From contig JAZLFH010000017.1 of NCBI GenBank assembly GCA_045615705.1, positions 9,121-73,120 on the forward strand: a stretch of DNA of 64,000 nucleotides. Reading direction: 5' to 3'. The translations under genes were made by a program, and so were the position numbers. This DNA is from Clostridia bacterium (GTDB lineage: Bacteria; Bacillota; Clostridia; UMGS1883). This document shows, one piece after another, positions 53,604 to 64,000 of the stretch (positions within the stretch are counted from its first letter, which is position 1; each line of letters begins with the position of its first letter). The notes below the pieces were generated by a model that was not told the DNA's origin, did no database searches, and saw only the letters and a program-made list of their open reading frames with translations.

Positions 53604-53789
53604 CTATGAAATGAGGTATAAAAAATATATTAAGGCCGAAATCATACACAAAAATATTACCGCCAAAAAGCCTAAGGTATTTTTTGTTTTTTTCAGGTAA
53701 ATTGAGTAAGAAAATGTGCGTATCAAAATTAAAATCTCAACAAGCATCAATAAAAATTTTACTCCATTTATTGAAAAAGTCATCATCAT
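53604..53789 (-). CDS. Small two-TM membrane protein translationally coupled to the Ger(x)C gene (possible germinant-receptor D-type subunit)
   Basis: 61 aa with two hydrophobic helices. ATGA overlap with the upstream gerAC-like gene. Confidence 0.45.
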   Translation of the reverse strand: MMMTFSINGVKFLLMLVEILILIRTFSYSIYLKKTKNTLGFLAVIFLCMISALIYFLYLIS

Positions 53790-54979
53790 TCCTCCTGTAT
53801 TGCGTTTGAATTTGTTATGCTGAGGTTAACATTAACATCAAATGAAGCATTTTTATATTTCTTTTCCCAATCGTACTTTTCCCAATCGTCTATGTTTAAA
53901 AAATTCTTTTCGGCATATTTGTAAAATCCGAAAATATCACTGTCAAACTCACTTTGGCTCCTTTTTACAAGTTTTTTTATTTCCTGCTCCGCTTTTTTTG
54001 AAAACATATCTTTAAACTTAGAATCGTTATCCGACTTTTCGTTTTTCTCTCCTGCCAATACATATTCTCCCTCTAAAAATATATTTGCATAAATTTTGGG
54101 TATATCGCTTTTTGTATCCACCTTTATTATAGGTCTTGATAATTGTTTAAGTTTTATTGTTGTGTTTTTTTGTTTTTCATCATCATAGAGTGAAAAATAA
54201 TCCTCGGAATAACTGAATCTTAAAATCCTGAAAAATGTTTCTTCGGTTTCATTAAGGACTCCTTTCATCTGTCCTTTTTTAAATACCGAAAGCCCCAAAA
54301 ATTCCGCTCTGTCCTTTGATTTTCTCGGTGTATCTCCCGCTTCTGTTTTTGAAGAAAAGTCATCTTCTTTGCCTTCGTTTTTTATTTCATTATCATTTAT
54401 GGCACCATATAACATAACAGGGCTTGCGTGTAAACTTTCGTATGCAAAAAATCCGCTTGAAAGCGTAGTTTCTTTGGAATATCTGTCATCATCTCTTGAA
54501 AACAGAAGTTCAAAATACTTTTCTGCATAAGGTTCACCGGGGGGCTTTACATTCTTTAAAAATTCGCTCGGTTTATCCTTTGAAACGCACATATATGTGC
54601 TTGGTCGAAGTTCTCGGTCTTGTCCGAAAGTTATCAAAAAATCATCTATGCCCTCTTTTGCGATTTCCTCTGAAAAAAGTATCAATTTAGTATGCGAAAG
54701 GTCAATTCTCTTACTTTTAAATCCGGAAAGGTATTTTATTGCGGTAAAAAGATTTTCCGCCTCAATGTATGAACATTCACTTTTGTCTTCTTTTTCTTCT
54801 TTGTCACTATCCTCTTTATCAGTTTCTTCCTTATCTGAAAACATAAATGTAAATCCGTATATTCCGTTTTCACATTTTTCAACACCTAACGCTACAAGAT
54901 ATGCTTTGTTTTCAACATCCGTAAGCACTCCGCATCCCGAAAGAAAAAGTATCATTAAAATTGCAATTATGTTTTTCAT
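53786..54979 (-). CDS. Ger(x)C-family spore germination lipoprotein
   Basis: Lipobox LSGCG, followed by the Ger(x)C pattern. Third gene of an A-B-C operon. Confidence 0.85.
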   Translation of the reverse strand: MKNIIAILMILFLSGCGVLTDVENKAYLVALGVEKCENGIYGFTFMFSDKEETDKEDSDKEEKEDKSECSYIEAENLFTAIKYLSGFKSKRIDLSHTKLILFSEEIAKEGIDDFLITFGQDRELRPSTYMCVSKDKPSEFLKNVKPPGEPYAEKYFELLFSRDDDRYSKETTLSSGFFAYESLHASPVMLYGAINDNEIKNEGKEDDFSSKTEAGDTPRKSKDRAEFLGLSVFKKGQMKGVLNETEETFFRILRFSYSEDYFSLYDDEKQKNTTIKLKQLSRPIIKVDTKSDIPKIYANIFLEGEYVLAGEKNEKSDNDSKFKDMFSKKAEQEIKKLVKRSQSEFDSDIFGFYKYAEKNFLNIDDWEKYDWEKKYKNASFDVNVNLSITNSNAIQEE

Positions 54980-56073
54980 TTTATTTTTCTCCTTGCAAAA
55001 AGCAGTACAATAAATGGGAAAATCGGGTAAAAAATCGCTCCGTATCTGAAAAACACCTCAAAGAATATGCTCAAATGTCTGTCGCTCATGGGAAGTATCG
55101 AAAACAGGTACACGCTAAATGCCAAAATCGGGACTATTGGTCTTAAAGAATTTAACTTAAATGTCCTTTTTAGTGTGTATGCGGAAAAGAATAAGACACC
55201 ACTTAGGTATATTTGAACAGACAGACCGGAAATGAAAATTACAAGCGGGTCAAGTCTTTGCCAAAACACTCCCGATTTTATAAGCCGAGTAAGTTCGTAT
55301 ATCGGCTGTGCAATTTTTGCGGTTATGGGGTACGGAATTACAAGACAATATGACAATGACCAAATTGCAGTAAGCATTCCGCTGAGTAAAATTGCATTTT
55401 TACCTATGCTTTGAAATGCTTTGAAATCTCTTAAAAACGGCACCAACAAAAAAATAATCCCCACTTCTGCAAAAATGTTTGTGTTGACTGCGGTAGTGGA
55501 CAATACCTGTCTTATCCCTTTTCCTAAAATCGGGTAAAGATTTTTTATGTCGCAAAGTCGCCAAAGCATTATTACAATTATTGCCGTTGCAAAAAACGAA
55601 ACGATTGAAATTATTACATTTGCCCTTCCTATACTCTCAATTCCCAAAAACGCACAAACAGTCATTGGAACAAGGAAAAACAAGGCTATAAATTCTACTC
55701 TTCCGCTGCTTAGTGCGGTCATTTTTATTTCTCGTATCATGTTTTTTTCCACTGCCGTTGCCATAGAGATCAAAACGGTAAATATGAATACTCCGCCTAT
55801 TATTCTGCCTGCCTTATTGAATGCAATTTCAAGCAAATCAAAAATATCTTTCTCAAAAAAATTCTTGTATATGCTCGACAACATTAAAAAAATTGCGAGT
55901 GAGAGAAGTGTTTTCAGGATAATTACAAGCCAAACGGCATTTCCGCTTTGTTCTACCAAAAGTGTCGGCATAGAAAGAAAAAATTTTGTTATTACTGCCG
56001 CAGTTATTATAAGGATTCCTTCTGCTTTTCCTATCTCTTTAACTTTAATCACCTCATTTAACTTTTTCTCCAC
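54976..56073 (-). CDS. Spore germination protein, GerAB/APC-permease-like subunit
   Basis: About 10-TM protein of 365 aa between the GerA- and GerC-type genes. Confidence 0.85.
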   Translation of the reverse strand: MEKKLNEVIKVKEIGKAEGILIITAAVITKFFLSMPTLLVEQSGNAVWLVIILKTLLSLAIFLMLSSIYKNFFEKDIFDLLEIAFNKAGRIIGGVFIFTVLISMATAVEKNMIREIKMTALSSGRVEFIALFFLVPMTVCAFLGIESIGRANVIISIVSFFATAIIVIMLWRLCDIKNLYPILGKGIRQVLSTTAVNTNIFAEVGIIFLLVPFLRDFKAFQSIGKNAILLSGMLTAIWSLSYCLVIPYPITAKIAQPIYELTRLIKSGVFWQRLDPLVIFISGLSVQIYLSGVLFFSAYTLKRTFKLNSLRPIVPILAFSVYLFSILPMSDRHLSIFFEVFFRYGAIFYPIFPFIVLLFARRKIK

Positions 56074-57629
56074 TTTTCCGAAATATCAGGTTGTGCTTTT
56101 TCTCTCTTAGTATTTAAAAAGTCAGGTCTGTACTCTCTTTTCCATATTGGAGGTATAAAACCGGTATGAAGCATTGCTCTTTTTGAAACCGGTGCAATCG
56201 GTGATAACATAGGAACGCCCATAGATTTAACACTTGACCATACCGCAAGATGCATTATCATACCCGCAGTAATCCCCAAAAAACCTCCTAATGCACCTAA
56301 AAATATATACATAAATTTAAGAACTCGTGCGGAAAGTGAAATGTAATAATTAGGTGTAGCAAGACTTCCTATTGCCGAAAACGATACTATTATTATCATT
56401 ATCGGACTTACGATTTTTGCTTCTACCGCCGCTTGACCCAATATAAGTGCTCCGACAATACTCAACGGTGATGAAATTGTTCCGGGCACTCTGTTTCCCG
56501 CCTCACGAACAATTTCAAGTGATATTTCCATAAGTAAAAGTTCCAAAAATGCAGGAAACGGCACTTTTTCTCTTGCCGAAATTATGGACATCAAAAGGTC
56601 TGTCGGTATTATTTCTTGATGAAAATTGATTACTGCGATATATAATCCTGAAATCAAAAGCGAAAAAAAGTACGCAAAAAGTCTTACAAAATGAATCATG
56701 GCAACATACGGAAATCTTAAATATCTGTCGTCTGCCGGTTCATTTAGTTCAAAAACCGTTATCGGTGAAATTATTGCATATGGCGAACCGTCAACAAGTA
56801 TTGCACACCTTCCCTCGCATATTGCCCTTGCCGTTCTGTCGGGACGCTCGGTGGAAAGGAATTGCGGTATTGTGAGGAAACTTTTATCTTCGATAAATTG
56901 TTCCACTTCCGCACTCGAAAACACATAATCCGTTGAAATATTTTCAAGCCGCATTTTTGCTTCCTCAATCATTGAGTCCGATGCTACCGATTCCAAATAA
57001 CAAACGGCACACGATGTGTGGCTCAAAGTTCCTACTTCTACCTCTTCAATTACAAAATCTCTGTTTTTAATGAGTCGTCGTAAAAGAGAAGTATTTGCGT
57101 TTATCATTTCCGAAAATGCGTCTGACGGTCCTCTTAGGACTATTTCGTTTTTTGCTTCTTCTATTCCTCTGTGTTCCCAACCCTTCATATCTATTATTAC
57201 AGCATCTTTCATGCCTTCCGCCAAAAGAACGCAAGAGCCGTAATTTAGTTTTGTAAGTATTTCGTCAATCGAATTTGAAAAGTCCATTTCCCCTTCCGGA
57301 ACCGAATTTTTTATAAAATCTCCTATTTTGCTCTTGCCGTCAAACAACATAATAGGCTTGAAAACAAAATCGCAAAGGTCGGTTCTGTCTACCATTCCGT
57401 CAATAAAAAACACACTGCATTTTTCTCCGCCTTTTGACTTGAACTCTCTTACTCGGCTGTCCCGGTTTTTATCAAAACGCATCATTTCTCTTATCAGTGC
57501 CACATCTTTTTTATATCTTCCCGAAAGGTATGTTTCTTCGTGTTTTTTTACTTTTTGTCCGCTGTCGGTAAGTGAAAAATCATGTTCTTTTTCCGGAAGT
57601 TTATATATAAATAAATCTTTAACTGCCAT
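56058..57629 (-). CDS. Spore germination protein, GerAA-type subunit
   Basis: Soluble N-domain plus a C-terminal TM region with PFPAFLELLLMEISLEIVREAG, typical of GerA. Start placed at 57629 (MAVKDLF) after GGGGA. Confidence 0.9.
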   Translation of the reverse strand: MAVKDLFIYKLPEKEHDFSLTDSGQKVKKHEETYLSGRYKKDVALIREMMRFDKNRDSRVREFKSKGGEKCSVFFIDGMVDRTDLCDFVFKPIMLFDGKSKIGDFIKNSVPEGEMDFSNSIDEILTKLNYGSCVLLAEGMKDAVIIDMKGWEHRGIEEAKNEIVLRGPSDAFSEMINANTSLLRRLIKNRDFVIEEVEVGTLSHTSCAVCYLESVASDSMIEEAKMRLENISTDYVFSSAEVEQFIEDKSFLTIPQFLSTERPDRTARAICEGRCAILVDGSPYAIISPITVFELNEPADDRYLRFPYVAMIHFVRLFAYFFSLLISGLYIAVINFHQEIIPTDLLMSIISAREKVPFPAFLELLLMEISLEIVREAGNRVPGTISSPLSIVGALILGQAAVEAKIVSPIMIIIVSFSAIGSLATPNYYISLSARVLKFMYIFLGALGGFLGITAGMIMHLAVWSSVKSMGVPMLSPIAPVSKRAMLHTGFIPPIWKREYRPDFLNTKREKAQPDISEKWRKS

Positions 57630-57763
57630 ATTTATCCCCCAATCATTTTCATCTTTCCCGTTTAAATATTTAATATACATGGGCTGTAAAAAAGCATACC
57701 GATTGTATAAAGAGAGAAAAAAACATTAGTTTAATTATTTAAGTAAAAAACTAATGCTTTACA

Positions 57764-57814: not shown

Positions 57815-58735
57815 TTAAAAATTAAAGAGTGCATCACAAAAATCTTGTGCGTCAAATTCTTGAAGGTCTTCTATTCCCTCTCCTACTCCGATAAACTTTA
57901 CGGGAACCGAAAGTTTCTTCATTATGTTTACAACCATTCCGCCCTTAGCCGTACCGTCTAACTTCGTTAAAACAATTCCCGTAAGCGAAGCAGCTTTATC
58001 AAATTCTTCCGCTTGTGCGATTGCATTTTGCCCTGTTGTTGCATCCAAAACCAACAGTACCTCTCTTGATGCCCCGGGAAGTTCTCTTTCGATAACACGG
58101 TAAATCTTTTTAAGTTCTTCCATGAGGTTTTTCTTGTTGTGAAGTCTGCCTGCCGTATCGCAGATTAATATATCTGTTTTTTTGCTCTTTGCCGAAGCAC
58201 ACGCATCAAAAACCACCGCCGCAGGGTCTGCCCCCTCGTTTAGTCTTACAATAGGCACATCATTTCTTTTTGCCCATATTTCAAGTTGGTCAGATGCTGC
58301 TGCTCTGAATGTATCCGCCGCCGCAAGCATAACACTTTTTCCTTCTTTTTTGTAGCGTGATGTGAGTTTTCCTATTGTTGTTGTTTTTCCCACACCATTT
58401 ACCCCGATTAAAAGAATAACCGAAGGGCTTGTGTCAAGGTGCATTTTACTGTCGCCGTTTAAGTAACCTCTTACTATATCTTTTATTTCAACTTTTAATT
58501 CTTCGGAGTCTGTTAATCTTTTTTCTTTGACTCTTTCTTTCAGTTCGTCAATAATCTCCATCGTTGTCATTGCACCGATGTCGCCTTCAATAAGTGCTTC
58601 TTCAAGTTCGTCAAAAAGTTCATCATCAATTTTTTTAAAAAGTTTTAATGTATTTTCGACCTTTTGCGATATATTATCTCTCGTCTTTTCCATTGAATCT
58701 TTAAGACGCGAAAAAAAGCCTCTTTTTTCTTCCAT
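57815..58735 (-). CDS. ftsY: Signal recognition particle receptor FtsY
   Basis: SRP54-type GTPase motifs GVNGVGKTTT, DTAGR and TKLDG. 306 aa. Confidence 0.95.
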   Translation of the reverse strand: MEEKRGFFSRLKDSMEKTRDNISQKVENTLKLFKKIDDELFDELEEALIEGDIGAMTTMEIIDELKERVKEKRLTDSEELKVEIKDIVRGYLNGDSKMHLDTSPSVILLIGVNGVGKTTTIGKLTSRYKKEGKSVMLAAADTFRAAASDQLEIWAKRNDVPIVRLNEGADPAAVVFDACASAKSKKTDILICDTAGRLHNKKNLMEELKKIYRVIERELPGASREVLLVLDATTGQNAIAQAEEFDKAASLTGIVLTKLDGTAKGGMVVNIMKKLSVPVKFIGVGEGIEDLQEFDAQDFCDALFNF

Positions 58736-61700
58736 TATGCTAACTTACCTACCTCACTTAATTTCATTGAAAGCAATTTGCTTACTCCTTTTTCTTGCAT
58801 TGTTACACCGTAAAGCATCTCTGCCGCTTCCATTGTACCACGGCGGTGCGTTATTACTATAAACTGCGTTTGACTGTTATATTTTTTCATATAATCCGCA
58901 AAACGATACACATTTTCATCGTCAAGGGCAGATTCTATTTCATCCAATATCAAAAACGGTGCAGGCATTACTTTTAAAAATGCAAACAAAAGTGCAATTG
59001 CGGTAAGTGCCCTTTCTCCTCCGGAAAGCAAAGTAATATTTTGCAGTTTCTTTCCCGGCGGCTGAATTTCTATTTCTATACCGCTTTCCAAAACATTATT
59101 CTCATCTGCAAGATAAACAGACGCACTTCCCCCTCCGAAAAGGTCGATAAATGCAGTTTTAAACTCTGAATTTATAATTGCAAATCGCTCTTTAAACTGT
59201 TGTTCCATAACCTTTGTCATATCCGAAATAAGTTTTAAAAGAGATGCCTTTGCTTCTTCCAAATCCTTTGTTTGCCCCGATAAAAACTCGTAGCGTTCTT
59301 TTACCTCTTTGTATTCTTCAATAGCATCAACATTTACATTTCCGAGTTCTTTTATAGACCTCTTTAAATCCGCAATCTCTTTTTGTGCTTTTGAAAGTGT
59401 TATGTCGGTTTTGTACTCCAATGCTGTATTGTATGTAAGTTCATACTCGTCCCAAAGCCTGTTTGTGGCATTTTCAATATCGTAATCAATGCGGTTTTTC
59501 TTGCTTTCCAAACGAGTACATTCCTCTTGCAATAAAAGAAGTTTATCGTTAATTGTTTTATTCTCTTTTCTTACCTCTTCGAGTGCTTCTTCAAGATCTT
59601 TTCTTTCTTCTTGTGCCTTTGTTATTTGCTCCTTTACAGAGTCAATTTCTCTGTCTATTTCCTCTGTTGCATCACTTCTTGTGGATAAAAGAGCATTTAT
59701 TGAATTTATTCTTTCCTTAATTGACTCATACTGTGCCTTTTTGACTTCGTTTTCTCTTTTTAAGTCTTTAATCCGTAACTCGCAATCTCTTTTTCTTGTT
59801 TCTTCAAGTGTTATACTGTTTTCCAAAGTATTTATATCTGTTCTTGCGGACAGAATTACAGAACTCATTTCATCTCTTTGTCTTATTACGGAAAGAATTT
59901 CTTCCTGTTTGGTTTTTTCTTGTATTTTTGTCTTTTCTTTTTCATCTCGTGCAGACAGTTCGTCCTTTTTAAGCGTTTCGGTCAATGTGTCCGCATCGGT
60001 AATCTGTCTGTACAAATCTTCTTTTTCATTTGCGAATCTTTTTTCTCGACCTTCGGCATCTTCCAATAAATGTTCTTTAAGGCTTATGTCTGCACTTATA
60101 TGCACAAGTTCCGACTCTTTATTTGAGAGTTCTTCTCTTTTTCTTTCTTCTTCGCCTCGGCGAAGCGAAAGTTTTTTGGAAAGCGAATATATCTCCTCTT
60201 CCGTTTTGTCAGCCTTCTTTAAAAATTCGGTCGCATCTTTTTTAAGTTCGGCTATCTCTTCTTTTCTTCCCAAAAGTGCCTGAGATTTATTCTGACTTCC
60301 GCCGGTGATTGAACCTCCGGGTTGCAATATTTCACCGCTCAAAGTAACGATTTTAAATCTGTACTTATACTTTTTTGCAAGTGAAATTGCACTTTTTAAA
60401 TCCTCGCAAATTACCGTTCTTCCCAAAAGTGCCTCAATTGCATTATCCAAAAATGCTTCACGCTCAACCACATCGGATGCAATGCAAAGCACTCCGTCAT
60501 TTCCCAAAACTTCTTTTTCTATGTCAAGTCTTCTTTTTTCCTGAGCGGATAGCACCAAAAAGGTTACCCTGCCGAGGGAATTTTCTTTTAAATACTCAAT
60601 CGCTTTTTTGGCGTCATTTTCTTCATTGACAACGATATTTTGCATGGTATTCCCGAGTGCCGACTCTATCGCCGATACATATTTTTTCTCAACATTGATA
60701 AGTGAAGAAAGTGTACCCGAAAATTCGCCATGATACTCTTTGTTTTTCTTTGCTTTTATAAGTTCTCTTACGCCTCGTGCATAGCCTTCAAGTGAATTTT
60801 CCATTTCAATGAGCATATTCGCTTTGGAATTTTTCTCTCCCGCTTTTGCACTGAGTTTATTATATTCTTCTTTTAACTCGTCCACTCTTTTTGAGGTCTT
60901 AATTACTTCCTGTCCTATATCAAACAGTTCTTTTTTATACTTGTCCGCTTCTTCTTTTAAAGCATTCTCACGCTCTTTCATAAAAAGAAGTTCGCCGGCA
61001 AGTTTTTCTTTTGTGGAAGTTGCTTCTTCAATATCCGTTTCGATTGATAATTTTCGGTTTTCGATATTACTCAAAATAAGCTGAACACTTTCGGACTTGC
61101 TTTTTGCCTCGCTTTCTTTTTTCTCAATATCCGAAAGCAATACCCTTATTTCTTCAAGTTCTCGGTTCTTATTTGAAAGAATTACTGAGATTTCGTCAGT
61201 TTGTTTATTTCTTTCTTCAAGGTATTTTTCCGCCGTTGCCTTTTTTTCTTCCAAATCCGAAATGCGTTTTTGGATTTCTGCCTCTTGCAGAATTTCCGCT
61301 TCCCTTTTCTTATCAAATCCTTCAAAATCAAGTTTTAAAAGTTTTAAATTGCTCTCTAAATTTGAAATATCGTTTTGTGCGAGCATAAGTTCGCCCGAAA
61401 CGGAAACCTTTTTTGTTTCAAGTTCGCTTTTTCTGCCGTGCAACTCTTCAATTTCGCTATCCTTTTGGCGGACGGCATCATACGCCTCTTTATTTTTCTC
61501 ATCAAGGGAGTCAAACTCGTTTTTTGCATTGGCAAATTCATCTTTTGCACTTGTAAGAAGTTTTTCATTCTCAAAAGAAGCAATTCTTTTTGCATCAATC
61601 ACCGCAAGGAGTGTGCTGACCTCTGTTTTTCTTAAAGCATCACGGTACGAAAGGTACATTTTTGCTTTTTCGCTTTGTACCCTGAGAGGTTCCAGACGCT

Positions 61701-62298
61701 CTGTGATTTCACTTAAAATATCTCTTACTCTTGAAAGGTTTTCTTCTGTCTTTTCAAGTTTTCGTTCTGCTTCTGTTTTTCTGAAACGATACTTTGATAT
61801 ACCGGAAGCTTCTTCAAAAACCTGACGGCGGTCATCACTTTTGGCAGAAAGTATTTCGTCAATTTTGCCCTGCCCCACTATTGAGTAACCATCTCTTCCG
61901 AGTCCGGTATCCATAAAAAGTTCGTGTACATCTTTCATTCTGCAAGATGATTTGTTTATGTAATACTCACTTTCTCCGCTGCGAAACATCCGTCTTGTAA
62001 CCATAACTTCGCTGTATTCACTTGAAAGTGTGCCGGAAGTGTTATCCAAAATAAGCGAAACTTCGGCAAAAGAAAGCGGTTTTCTTTTTTCCGTTCCCGC
62101 AAAAATTACATCTTCCATTTTGCTTCCGCGAAGTGTTTTTGCACTTTGTTCGCCCAAAACCCATCTTACCGCATCACTTATATTACTCTTTCCGCTTCCG
62201 TTAGGTCCGACTATTGCAGTAAGCCCTCTGTCAACCTCAACAGTTGTCTTATCTACAAACGATTTAAAACCTTGCAGTTCTATTCTCTTTAAGTACAA
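58735..62298 (-). CDS. smc: Chromosome segregation protein SMC
   Basis: N-terminal Walker A GPNGSGKSN, long coiled coils, a hinge, the C-terminal LSGGE signature and Walker B ILDEIESALD. TTG start after GGAGGTG. Confidence 0.95.
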   Translation of the reverse strand: MYLKRIELQGFKSFVDKTTVEVDRGLTAIVGPNGSGKSNISDAVRWVLGEQSAKTLRGSKMEDVIFAGTEKRKPLSFAEVSLILDNTSGTLSSEYSEVMVTRRMFRSGESEYYINKSSCRMKDVHELFMDTGLGRDGYSIVGQGKIDEILSAKSDDRRQVFEEASGISKYRFRKTEAERKLEKTEENLSRVRDILSEITERLEPLRVQSEKAKMYLSYRDALRKTEVSTLLAVIDAKRIASFENEKLLTSAKDEFANAKNEFDSLDEKNKEAYDAVRQKDSEIEELHGRKSELETKKVSVSGELMLAQNDISNLESNLKLLKLDFEGFDKKREAEILQEAEIQKRISDLEEKKATAEKYLEERNKQTDEISVILSNKNRELEEIRVLLSDIEKKESEAKSKSESVQLILSNIENRKLSIETDIEEATSTKEKLAGELLFMKERENALKEEADKYKKELFDIGQEVIKTSKRVDELKEEYNKLSAKAGEKNSKANMLIEMENSLEGYARGVRELIKAKKNKEYHGEFSGTLSSLINVEKKYVSAIESALGNTMQNIVVNEENDAKKAIEYLKENSLGRVTFLVLSAQEKRRLDIEKEVLGNDGVLCIASDVVEREAFLDNAIEALLGRTVICEDLKSAISLAKKYKYRFKIVTLSGEILQPGGSITGGSQNKSQALLGRKEEIAELKKDATEFLKKADKTEEEIYSLSKKLSLRRGEEERKREELSNKESELVHISADISLKEHLLEDAEGREKRFANEKEDLYRQITDADTLTETLKKDELSARDEKEKTKIQEKTKQEEILSVIRQRDEMSSVILSARTDINTLENSITLEETRKRDCELRIKDLKRENEVKKAQYESIKERINSINALLSTRSDATEEIDREIDSVKEQITKAQEERKDLEEALEEVRKENKTINDKLLLLQEECTRLESKKNRIDYDIENATNRLWDEYELTYNTALEYKTDITLSKAQKEIADLKRSIKELGNVNVDAIEEYKEVKERYEFLSGQTKDLEEAKASLLKLISDMTKVMEQQFKERFAIINSEFKTAFIDLFGGGSASVYLADENNVLESGIEIEIQPPGKKLQNITLLSGGERALTAIALLFAFLKVMPAPFLILDEIESALDDENVYRFADYMKKYNSQTQFIVITHRRGTMEAAEMLYGVTMQEKGVSKLLSMKLSEVGKLA

Positions 62299-62363: not shown

Positions 62364-62410
62364 GGAAAAAATGCACTATGTTGTACGCTATATAATACAA
62401 AACGCGCATT

Positions 62411-62432
62411 AATTGTGCAACTTGCACAAATT
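62411..62432. repeat. Near-perfect inverted repeat TTGTGCAA-c-TTGCACAA between divergent promoters
   Basis: Perfect 8+8 palindrome at 62413-62429, extended by AA/TT flanks. Further TGCAC/TGCAA half-sites lie at 62348-62376. Confidence 0.4.
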
Positions 62433-62470
62433 ATTAGTTTTATTGTTATTTATTTGTAACAACAAATATG

Positions 62471-62499
62471 TTGACCTGTAACATCATAAGTGTTAATAT
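62471..62499 (+). promoter_or_regulatory. Sigma-A-type promoter with extended -10 (TTGACC-17-TGtTAATAT)
   Basis: TTGACC at 62471-62476 and TAATAT at 62494-62499, preceded by TGT. Confidence 0.55.
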
Positions 62500-62503
62500 T
62501 GTA

Positions 62504-62580
62504 TTGTACTAAGTGTACAAAACTTTTTTTCATTTTCCCTCCTTTTAGTGGCAGATTGATTATCTGTCATTTTTTTTCGT
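62504..62580 (+). ncRNA. Candidate ~75-nt small RNA: 5' hairpin, U-rich single strand with CCCUCC, intrinsic terminator
   Basis: Hairpin TTGTAC-taagt-GTACAA (62504-62520). CCCTCC at 62537-62542. Terminator GGCAGAT-tgatt-ATCTGTC (62550-62568) plus a T8 run. A separate promoter for the downstream gene follows it. Confidence 0.35.
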
Positions 62581-62587
62581 TTTTTAT

Positions 62588-62616
62588 TTGAATTTAAGAA
62601 CAAAATATACTATAAT
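62588..62616 (+). promoter_or_regulatory. Sigma-A-type promoter (TTGAAT-17-TATAAT) in front of the pspC fragment
   Basis: TTGAAT at 62588-62593 and TATAAT at 62611-62616. AGGAG lies 8 nt before the ATG at 62638. Confidence 0.6.
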
Positions 62617-62637
62617 ACAGGCGTAGGAGTAAGTTAT

Positions 62638-62757
62638 ATGCGTAAACTTTATAAATCACAGACAGATAAAAAACTTTGTGGGGTATGCGGAGGAATTGCC
62701 GAATACTTTAATATAGATTCAACCGTAATAAGGCTTATTTGGGTTTGTTTATGTTAA
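62638..62757 (+). pseudogene. 5' fragment of a PspC-domain gene, truncated after 39 codons
   Basis: [36 protein letters not shown] matches the PspC-domain consensus (LYRS..D..GVCGG.AEYF..D...R). It then ends CLC-stop, where the TM helix should continue. Confidence 0.7.
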
Positions 62758-63577
62758 TAACAATGTTATTGCAGAAACCGACAGTACGGGTACCATTATT
62801 TCCGAGATACTTTGGGGTAACGGAAAGCCGATAAGAAGAAAAGTCAATAACCAGTGGTATTATTATATCTACAATGCTCACGGTGATGTAGTAGCCCTGA
62901 CAGATTCAAGCGGAAATATCAAAAACAGTTATTCTTATGATGCATGGGGTAATATACAATCGGAAACAGAGCTTATTGATAATAAGGTCAAGTATGCAGG
63001 CGAATACTATGATGATGAGCTTGATATGTATTATTTAAGAGCAAGGTATTACGATCCGCAAACAGGACGCTTTACAAGTTTTGATATTCAAGAAGGAACA
63101 GTTGATGCTTCACAGGATTTAAACAGATATGCCTATTGCAGAAACAATCCTGTTAAATATGTTGATCCGAGCGGGGAAGAAGTAATAGTATTGACAGCTG
63201 CAACTGCTACGATAATAAAAGTTGCAATCGGAGCAATAGCAGCAATAGGGACCATGTATACGCTCAACAAAATGGTTAGCAATATTAGTGATAACAGAAA
63301 ACATCACATTTTGCATGGAAGTAATAATAGCCATGAGAAAGGTTGGAAAAAATTTAATATCGATCCTAACGATCCAAACGGTTTTGAAAAGTTGTTGCCT
63401 ATAATAAATGAAGTAATTAAAAATGGAACAAAGAGTAATTGGAGATCAGTTGGAAAAATGTCTATTCGAGAAATAGAATACTATTTTCCAAATATTGGAG
63501 AAACCGTTAGAGTTATTATAAATAAAACGGCAGAAGGTATAGAGAGCATTACAGATGCTTTTACAGTTTTTAAATAG
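62756..63577 (+). CDS. Orphan Rhs/YD-repeat C-terminal fragment: last YD repeats, core-end motif (PVKYVDPSGEE) and a 134-aa polymorphic toxin tip
   Basis: The frame is open from 62732. YD repeats (YYYIYNAHGDVVALTDSSGNIKNSYSYDAWGN; YAGEYYDDELDMYYLRARYYDPQTGRFTSFD) and NRYAYCRNNPVKYVDPSG are canonical for the Rhs core end. There is no N-terminal shell or secretion domain, and the first ATG in frame is at 63026. Confidence 0.8.
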   Translation, partial: NNNVIAETDSTGTIISEILWGNGKPIRRKVNNQWYYYIYNAHGDVVALTDSSGNIKNSYSYDAWGNIQSETELIDNKVKYAGEYYDDELDMYYLRARYYDPQTGRFTSFDIQEGTVDASQDLNRYAYCRNNPVKYVDPSGEEVIVLTAATATIIKVAIGAIAAIGTMYTLNKMVSNISDNRKHHILHGSNNSHEKGWKKFNIDPNDPNGFEKLLPIINEVIKNGTKSNWRSVGKMSIREIEYYFPNIGETVRVIINKTAEGIESITDAFTVFK

Positions 63578-63588
63578 GAGGATATAAT

Positions 63589-64000
63589 ATGACTTTATAT
63601 GAAAAAATATATTCGAAAGAGCACACCAGAAAGATTATAATGGAAGAAAGTGATAGTTGGATAAAGACATTAAAAAAGTTTGATGATAGTGTAGAAAAGA
63701 ATAGAGCGTTGGCACATGTGTACTATATAAGAGAACTTTATATATTTGATTGTGTAGATGCGGAAAAAGCGTGTGAATATTATGAAAAAATTCCTGTTAA
63801 TTACTATAGCATAGATTTATTGGCAGAGTATATTAACGCTCTTAAATTGTGTTATCATTTTAAGGAACTTATTAAATTGTCAAGAATAATCCTTAGTAGT
63901 GAAACCGAATTTGAAATGAGGTATTTGTTTTTAAGAGAGTTGGTGGATGCTGGAATGGTTGCAGACGGTGCAATGACAAAAGAAGAATATTTTGATTATA
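63589..64000 (+). CDS. Putative cognate immunity protein (helical, TPR-like), 3' end outside the window
   Basis: AGGAGGA 6 nt before the ATG at 63589, which is 11 nt after the toxin stop. The frame is open to the window edge (MTLYEKIYSKEHTRKIIMEESDSWIKTLKKFDDSVEKNRALAHVYYIRELYIF...). The function is inferred from position only. Confidence 0.5.
   Translation, partial: MTLYEKIYSKEHTRKIIMEESDSWIKTLKKFDDSVEKNRALAHVYYIRELYIFDCVDAEKACEYYEKIPVNYYSIDLLAEYINALKLCYHFKELIKLSRIILSSETEFEMRYLFLRELVDAGMVADGAMTKEEYFDY

Follow-up and report, generated by a model that had tools for sequence, protein, structure and literature searches.

What brings the tail end of an Rhs toxin gene to lie flush against a broken gene for a small PspC-domain membrane protein, and what could such an arrangement still do? 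The question is raised by positions 62638 to 64000 of a 64-kb stretch of contig JAZLFH010000017.1 from a Clostridia bacterium, hereafter called the window. An earlier note, made from the letters alone, had pointed to the oddity of this locus. The answer that we consider probable, and hold with reasonable confidence, is that an orphan rhs-CT/rhsI module (an rhs gene's C-terminal toxin end with its immunity gene) of the Gram-positive, Sec-exported Rhs/YD-repeat family has been joined illegitimately to a small pspC gene, with the toxin silent and the immunity gene expressed. The contig is reported to be 74,807 bp long, and up to ~10.8 kb may extend past position 64000.

Results

A pspC gene cut inside its transmembrane helix

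The truncated PspC-domain gene (62638–62757, plus strand) consists of 39 codons and a TAA stop, immediately followed by a second TAA. Its product matches the Pfam family PspC (PF04024) with an E-value of 7.7e-18 over model positions 1–38 of 58, which leaves the domain incomplete and without a full transmembrane (TM) helix; TIGR02978 also matches. A search of 5.8 billion proteins, for which the 39-aa query was padded with one non-native Leu, retrieved the fragment itself (P0300) and hundreds of small PspC proteins besides. The 120 matches listed range in size from 56 to 69 aa. Eleven intact homologues that were aligned to compare identity and length are 58–63 aa long, 79–87% identical to the fragment, and each of them continues with a GTGILAYIIAALIMPD-type TM helix. 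Measured against these homologues, the window copy is devoid of ~19–24 C-terminal residues, corresponding to most of the TM helix. It is very unlikely that the truncated product is functional.

Upstream of the gene, a sigma-70-type promoter-like site (TTGAAT-17-TATAAT; 62588–62616, plus strand) agrees with the consensus at 10 of 12 positions and presumably serves pspC; it is the sole good promoter candidate 5′ of the cassette. The sequence also offers a Shine-Dalgarno motif, AGGAG (62625–62629, plus strand), 8 nt before the ATG. The window gene resembles the small single-domain PspC proteins of Firmicutes (PF04024) in its first 36–39 residues, to which the above identities apply, and in having its own promoter and Shine-Dalgarno motif, and it differs from them in being cut inside the TM helix. 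Its best intact homologue is encoded by a lone gene that is flanked by a rhamnosidase gene and by pemK/alr, away from smc. The earlier description of a PspC gene with its own expression signals that breaks off after 39 codons, in the middle of the TM helix, is therefore borne out by the profile match and by the length of the intact homologues.

An Rhs core end with neither shell nor start codon

The Rhs-coding sequence lies in the next reading frame (+1 relative to pspC), which is closed upstream of 62732 and stays open from there to the TAG at 63575–63577. It contains YD repeats and encodes, in this order, WYYYIYNAHGDVV, the motif YYDPQTGRF, NPVKYVDPSGEE, and a further 133 residues. Among the Pfam and NCBIfam/TIGRFAM models, it matches TIGR03696 (Rhs_assc_core, E 2.2e-25), NF041261 (RHS_core, positions 1158–1260 of 1261), the RHS_repeat family PF05593 (E 7e-7), and TIGR01643 (E 5e-5). 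The remnant of the Rhs core (62756–63175, plus strand) accounts for ~140 codons, up to the DPSG of NPVKYVDPSGEE. This motif is a core/toxin boundary of the PxxxxDPxGL type, and the family variant DPSGE/DPTGE is conserved in the relatives. Profile searches of both frames thus returned PspC and Rhs matches, with the stretch 62756–63175 covered by the latter, and the view that an Rhs core is represented from 62756 onwards by its final ~140 residues only holds.

In place of a complete YD-repeat shell (>1000 aa) with an N-terminal export or targeting region, the window contains only these ~140 core residues. When the 1908-aa protein P0121, a full-length Rhs protein from elsewhere, was used in tblastn against the 64-kb window, no Rhs-like sequence was detected apart from the cassette at the 3′ end. 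Furthermore, the Rhs frame has no ATG, GTG, or TTG between 62732 and 63026. Its first in-frame ATG (63026–63028, plus strand) starts a 183-aa ORF (open reading frame; P0002), and the only sequence resembling a Shine-Dalgarno motif upstream of it is a weak GAG. The Met encoded here is conserved in the family (DELDM-Y/I-YLRARYY). The absence of a shell, of a secretion or targeting domain, and of an in-frame ATG before 63026, all recorded at first reading, is confirmed.

The same tip and toxin are found elsewhere at the end of a complete protein. P0121 has a signal-peptide-like N-terminus (MKYISRLLAVVIVLSMLLTSVNA) and a long YD-repeat body, and its last 274 residues, comprising tip and toxin, are 72% identical to the window Rhs frame. 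The designation of the window sequence as an orphan tip is thereby substantiated. A full-length rhs of the host genome with a near-identical core end was sought among the 120 matches listed, all of them <500 aa, and none exceeded 72% identity; in this listing, short cluster representatives stand in for long Rhs proteins. A scan of JGI metagenomes with the Rhs tip and toxin gave only relatives at ≤41% identity.

The joint between pspC and rhs

The two similarities abut at 62745–62756 (plus strand), as mapped by alignment to an intact pspC gene (L086) and by blastn to the rhs sequences of the P0121 locus (L001). With ~80% of the nucleotides identical, the window follows the intact pspC as far as ...TGGGT (62745), and the rhs similarity begins at 62746–62756, the blastn alignment starting at 62745 against an orphan tip and at 62756 against the full-length gene. 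The end of pspC and the start of rhs thus lie within ~12 nt of each other, without any filler. At the joint, no direct or inverted repeats of note were found, and at the window end no integrase, transposase, or other recombinase gene is visible. The abutment of two unrelated genes here, with neither repeats nor a recombinase gene in view, bears the signature of illegitimate recombination.

Two other origins were considered for this structure and rejected. A mobile-element origin was set aside, given the absence of repeats of note at the joint and of a visible integrase or transposase at the window end. A PspC-Rhs fusion concealed by a frameshift or sequencing indel was discarded as the main reading, since unrelated homologies simply abut and the 26-nt overlap of the two frames has no obvious slippery site. 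The earlier suggestion of illegitimate recombination or insertion is thus supported as far as the abrupt, repeat-free joint goes; the joint does not tell insertion, deletion, and assembly mis-join apart.

A divergent Ntox35-like toxin domain

The last ~98 residues of the Rhs frame, with the TAG stop (63281–63577, plus strand), are likely to form a divergent Ntox35-like RNase domain with the BECR fold, as judged from sequence homology and a structural model. In an exhaustive HMMER scan (phmmer) of 1.84 billion representatives, relatives of this domain occurred in only 60 clusters, and many of those retrieved terminate Rhs-type or other polymorphic-toxin carriers. Three members of the toxin family match Pfam Ntox35 (PF15534). 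P0267 (phmmer E 1.3e-7) and P0298 (E 7e-4) were retrieved from this library with the C-terminal (CT) domain of the window as query, and their CT segments match PF15534 over positions 1–78 of 78, at E-values of 7e-16 and 8e-15, respectively. The homology of the window domain to Ntox35 is therefore transitive, via members that match the Pfam model at ~E 1e-15.

The alignment A2, comprising 41 sequences, has an invariant His in KHHIL (H12) and near-invariant G, W, G, and D-A, and its motif reads ...HHILxGxxxxHxxGWxxFGIDPxDPxxWxxLLP...SDA. An AlphaFold2 model built on A2 (pLDDT 93.8) shows helices at H7–15, H22–26, and H37–51, followed by a four-stranded sheet, an arrangement that agrees with descriptions of the BECR RNase fold. 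In PDB sequences, a profile search for the toxin gave nothing meaningful. Zhang et al. 2012 (PMC3482391) class Ntox35 among the BECR RNases and note that it has two N-terminal histidines together with a conserved S/T in its C-terminal strand. In the S8-Ntox35 toxin of S. aureus, the H205A substitution in the predicted RNase active site abolished toxicity (bioRxiv 10.1101/2025.07.24.666436).

The window domain shares with Ntox35 the predicted alpha+beta arrangement of N-terminal helices and a four-stranded sheet, and an association with RHS repeats has already been recorded for Ntox35. The invariant His of the first helix and a second His downstream, which is present in most members (KHHILHGSNNSH in the window), may correspond to the two histidines of Ntox35, and the S/T-D-A in the last strand (ITDA in the window) may likewise correspond to its S/T. 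In contrast, the window domain itself has no Pfam match, and the spacing of its histidines is longer (HH-x8-H, as against H-x5-H in Ntox35). The window sub-family further differs in adding a conserved GW..FGIDPxDP..W..LLP segment, in being rare (the 60 clusters mentioned above), and in having its own ~157-aa immunity family without a Pfam match.

Between the DPSG boundary and the toxin domain lies a hydrophobic linker (63176–63280, plus strand; EEVIVLTAATATIIKVAIGAIAAIGTMYTLNKMV). A hydrophobic segment of ~30 residues, rich in Ala, Gly, and Ile, likewise follows DPSG in P0007, P0008, and P0011, despite their unrelated toxins. This recurrence suggests that the segment may be a common membrane-interacting ‘pre-toxin’ element and not part of the toxin.

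The candidate immunity gene

An ORF on the plus strand (63589–64000) starts 11 nt past the toxin stop and runs off the window, with 137 codons visible where ~157 are expected; the locus thus continues past the window, as had been anticipated. It is preceded by a ribosome-binding site (RBS), AGGAGG (63576–63581, plus strand), 7 nt before the start. In L001, the P0121 gene is followed by a 157-aa ORF and then by two orphan Rhs tips, and this 157-aa ORF is 62% identical to the window ORF over all 137 visible residues. The toxin and downstream-ORF families are adjacent also in L084 and L085. Since the two families are repeatedly found side by side, they form a predicted toxin/immunity module, and the conserved linkage makes the ORF at 63589 the candidate for the cognate immunity gene. 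The earlier notion of a non-Rhs C-terminal domain with a tightly spaced downstream ORF has in this way gained a predicted toxin class, an 11-nt gap, and a family linkage in each of four other loci that were examined, L001, L084, and L085 among them.

No terminator-like sites were found on the plus strand between 62638 and 64000. Given the strong RBS of the immunity ORF and the lack of a terminator after the pspC promoter, read-through transcription from that promoter and expression of the immunity gene are plausible.

The conserved ~157-aa candidate immunity family (63589–64000 in the window, 15741–16214 in L001, and 1933–2406 in L085) has no Pfam or NCBIfam match, and its members share the motifs ...LA.VYY...D...AEKACEY..KIP...LKLCY.F...MVADG.MTKEEY. 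A promoter-like site at 63560–63588 (TTTACA-17-TATAAT) has the best score in the region, 11 of 12. It was rejected as a promoter of the immunity ORF, because the −10 box stops a single base short of the ATG and cannot serve that ORF; in AT-rich DNA such as this, the match probably arose by chance.

Orphan cassettes at other loci

In L084 and L085, both metagenomic contigs, the toxin also occurs as an orphan tip, preceded by a different immunity gene or by a further rhs-CT/immunity pair. Orphan tips are common in this family, and the point at which they are cut at the 5′ end varies: QKNDKQY.. in L001, NNNVIAETD in the window, ILWGNGKP in L091, RKTNGSWYYY in L084, and GDVVGMADS in L085. Compared with the window cut point, the first orphan of L001 starts 35 nt further upstream in the core, and those of L091, L084, and L085 start further downstream. 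As the cut points differ between loci, the size of the window remnant is unremarkable.

The 1442-bp ENA contig L084 has identical immunity sequence at both ends (2–463 and 1279–1440) around one orphan tip; either identical orphan cassettes stand here in tandem, or the assembly has wrapped or collapsed a repeat. In L091 (GCA_965335765.1), an orphan Rhs tip at the contig end (9953–10558) lies ~100 nt past an intact DUF3997 gene. Upstream of this tip are rho, serS, and other housekeeping genes, and a full-length rhs is absent within 10 kb upstream. Its toxin is a different, Lys-rich one, the same as in P0007. As L091 also lies away from a main rhs gene, detached orphans are not unique to the window. 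What is particular to the window is that the upstream gene is cut and that its promoter now faces the cassette.

Genomic setting

The neighbouring gene smc (58735–62298, minus strand) is transcribed divergently from pspC, and ftsY (57815–58735, minus strand) lies beyond it. The two nearest relatives retain smc-ftsY; upstream of smc, one of them has an amidase gene and the other a gene for an SLH protein. A genome-contig scan with SMC found full-length relatives at 28–46% identity, none with a PspC gene nearby. The ‘core-genome’ label that the earlier note had attached to the locus thus fits the smc-ftsY side only. The side upstream of smc is a variable spot, which differs in each of the nearest relatives, and pspC is not syntenic with smc elsewhere. 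Comparison of the smc loci of relatives, at ≤52% SMC identity, confirmed the conservation of smc-ftsY, gave no case of an intact pspC beside smc, and is uninformative on the ancestral state and the insertion boundaries. That the cassette sits alone is correct for the 62.7 kb upstream of it.

Directly downstream of ftsY on the minus strand is a gerA-type spore germination set (53786–57680). GerA (56058–57680) and Spore_permease (54976–56073) were confirmed with Pfam, and an ORF at 53786–54979 adjoins them. The germination genes mark the host as a spore-forming, low-GC Firmicute.

The spacer between smc and pspC has a 13-nt inverted repeat (ATTAATTGTGCAA/TTGCACAAATTAT; 62408–62434). Within 62471–62581, it also has a plus-strand promoter-like sequence with a TG element (TTGACC-17-TAATAT). 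A hairpin with a T-run (62547–62581) follows ~50 nt past this site, just 5′ of the pspC promoter. From their sequence, these elements could represent an operator and a short transcript or attenuator; an Rfam scan of the spacer gave zero matches and lends no support to an RNA element.

Discussion

The present study traces the locus to two known kinds of parts, a small pspC gene and the end of a Gram-positive rhs gene with its immunity partner, which meet at a sharp joint. All the sequence features listed in the earlier note were found where it had placed them, and its core reading holds. In the scenario that we favor, a single non-homologous recombination would have joined the 5′ end of the cassette to codon ~36–39 of a stand-alone pspC, either because a deletion reached from pspC into an rhs locus or because an array of cassettes was inserted into pspC. 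Having neither shell nor signal peptide, the toxin part cannot be delivered. With no translation start at its 5′ end, it would most likely be silent, stored coding material, which recombination with a full-length rhs might re-arm. The immunity gene, in turn, would be transcribed by read-through from the pspC promoter and could protect the cell against neighbours deploying the same toxin. Orphan modules without initiation signals but with expressible immunity genes have been described previously (Poole et al. 2011, PMC3150448).

Several observations weigh against this reading. The joint is seen in one assembly, and the exact 31-mer across it has zero copies in JGI metagenomes. Just beyond 64000, there may be a full-length rhs, further cassettes, or the 3′ remnant of pspC. 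The collections searched contained no close relative for a synteny comparison, the closest SMC apart from that of the source being 52% identical in a protein search. Moreover, the window toxin domain has no match in NCBIfam, nor in Pfam even at E ≤ 10, and Foldseek found no significant match of the toxin model in the PDB; what carries the RNase assignment is thus transitive sequence homology together with topology. That the immunity gene is expressed, too, is something that we infer.

An assembly mis-join at 62745–62756, by which an intact pspC beside smc was wrongly linked to an array of rhs orphans from another part of the genome, or from a different organism of the sample, would make the whole arrangement artificial, and we regard it as unlikely. 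Rhs arrays are rich in repeats and often break or confuse assemblies. The proteins of the window contig occur once in the collection, on one contig; the related orphan cassettes of L084, L085, and L091 lie on tiny contigs or at contig ends; and the junction scan yielded no independent copy. Composition at first sight points the same way, as the GC content at third codon positions (GC3) is 0.23–0.26 for the toxin and immunity parts, below the 0.325 ± 0.02 of the 21 window genes taken as host reference. However, the homologous cassette of L001 shows the same low toxin and immunity values, which are thus a property of the cassette and not a sign of foreign origin, and the core remnant is host-like (0.32). 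Rhs tips are known to be AT-rich, and the composition of the window is consistent with this; as a test of foreign or chimeric origin, it was set aside as not discriminating. What speaks further against a mis-join is that the pspC side of the joint is unique, non-repeat sequence and that any shared sequence there is ≤~11 nt and imperfect, too short for a k-mer error.

Other alternatives accept the joint and concern what it does. The promoter of pspC, a small gene of the envelope-stress type, may have been captured when illegitimate recombination brought the module there, so that the solitary module is actively expressed, either as a pspC-regulated immunity-only island or as an intracellular toxin-antitoxin-like pair starting at Met-63026; we give this a small but real chance. 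If it were true, the pair would be a previously uncharacterised Ntox35-like RNase with a new immunity family. The internally expressed pair taken by itself, in which the pspC promoter and the ATG at 63026 yield a 183-aa cytoplasmic protein of Rhs end, linker, and RNase restrained by the immunity protein, appears quite unlikely to us. The ORF at 63026–63577 is intact, its Met is conserved in the relatives, and a promoter lies upstream with no terminator in between. In Salmonella, there is also a precedent for internal expression of main and orphan Rhs-CTs kept in check by immunity (PMC7043789). Yet the ribosome-binding site before 63026 is poor (GAG only), no promoter-like site lies directly upstream, and in full-length relatives the same Met is a mere internal residue of the core. 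Least probable of all, and very improbable in our view, is that the cassette is in decay, left behind dead after an rhs locus was deleted, with neither part expressed or selected and with frames that are still open only because the event was recent. The destroyed pspC and the toxin without a start codon would suit such a remnant, and for an organism known from one contig conservation is not demonstrable. Nevertheless, frames of 846 nt and 411 nt are intact in DNA of 30–37% GC, with no gaps or stops relative to homologues of 62–72% identity, the RBS of the immunity gene is intact, and the catalytic-type histidines are retained.

The module that we favor, joined by illegitimate recombination and silent in its toxin part, has its closest parallels among enterobacteria, in their orphan modules of the rhs-CT/rhsI and cdiA-CT/cdiI kinds (PMC3150448; Koskiniemi et al. 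2014, PMC3967940). Like these, it begins with a core stretch that leads to the DPxG boundary without a 5′ initiation signal, an immunity ORF with an RBS of its own follows at a short distance, and its CT is found on a full-length rhs in another bacterium (P0121). In contrast to these, the window cassette has no full-length rhs ahead of it in the 62.7 kb upstream; it is joined to a truncated, unrelated gene with a promoter that points inward. The host is also different, being a spore-forming, low-GC bacterium of the Clostridia type, and the full-length relatives carry a Sec signal instead of PAAR/VgrG adaptors of the type VI secretion system.

Among Gram-positive bacteria, WapA of Bacillus subtilis is a toxin of the Rhs/YD-repeat kind, and its toxin domains are tRNases. 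P0121 matches this type in its signal peptide, YD repeats, Rhs core, variable toxin, and downstream immunity gene, after which orphan tips follow. Of a gene of this kind, no more than the final ~15% is present in the window, and the toxin domain there is unlike those known for WapA.

The locus thus represents genomic debris of a familiar kind, found in an unusual place, and leaves the picture of polymorphic toxin systems unchanged. Within that picture, it provides a clean example, from a poorly sampled lineage of spore-forming Clostridia, of an Rhs cassette that has no delivery gene in view and whose arrival cost the host a gene for a small membrane protein. It also defines a rare sub-family of predicted Ntox35-like RNases with a conserved ~157-aa immunity partner, which current domain libraries miss. 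If the immunity gene does use the captured promoter, the locus would illustrate how ‘antidote-only’ protection can be kept after the loss of the weapon.

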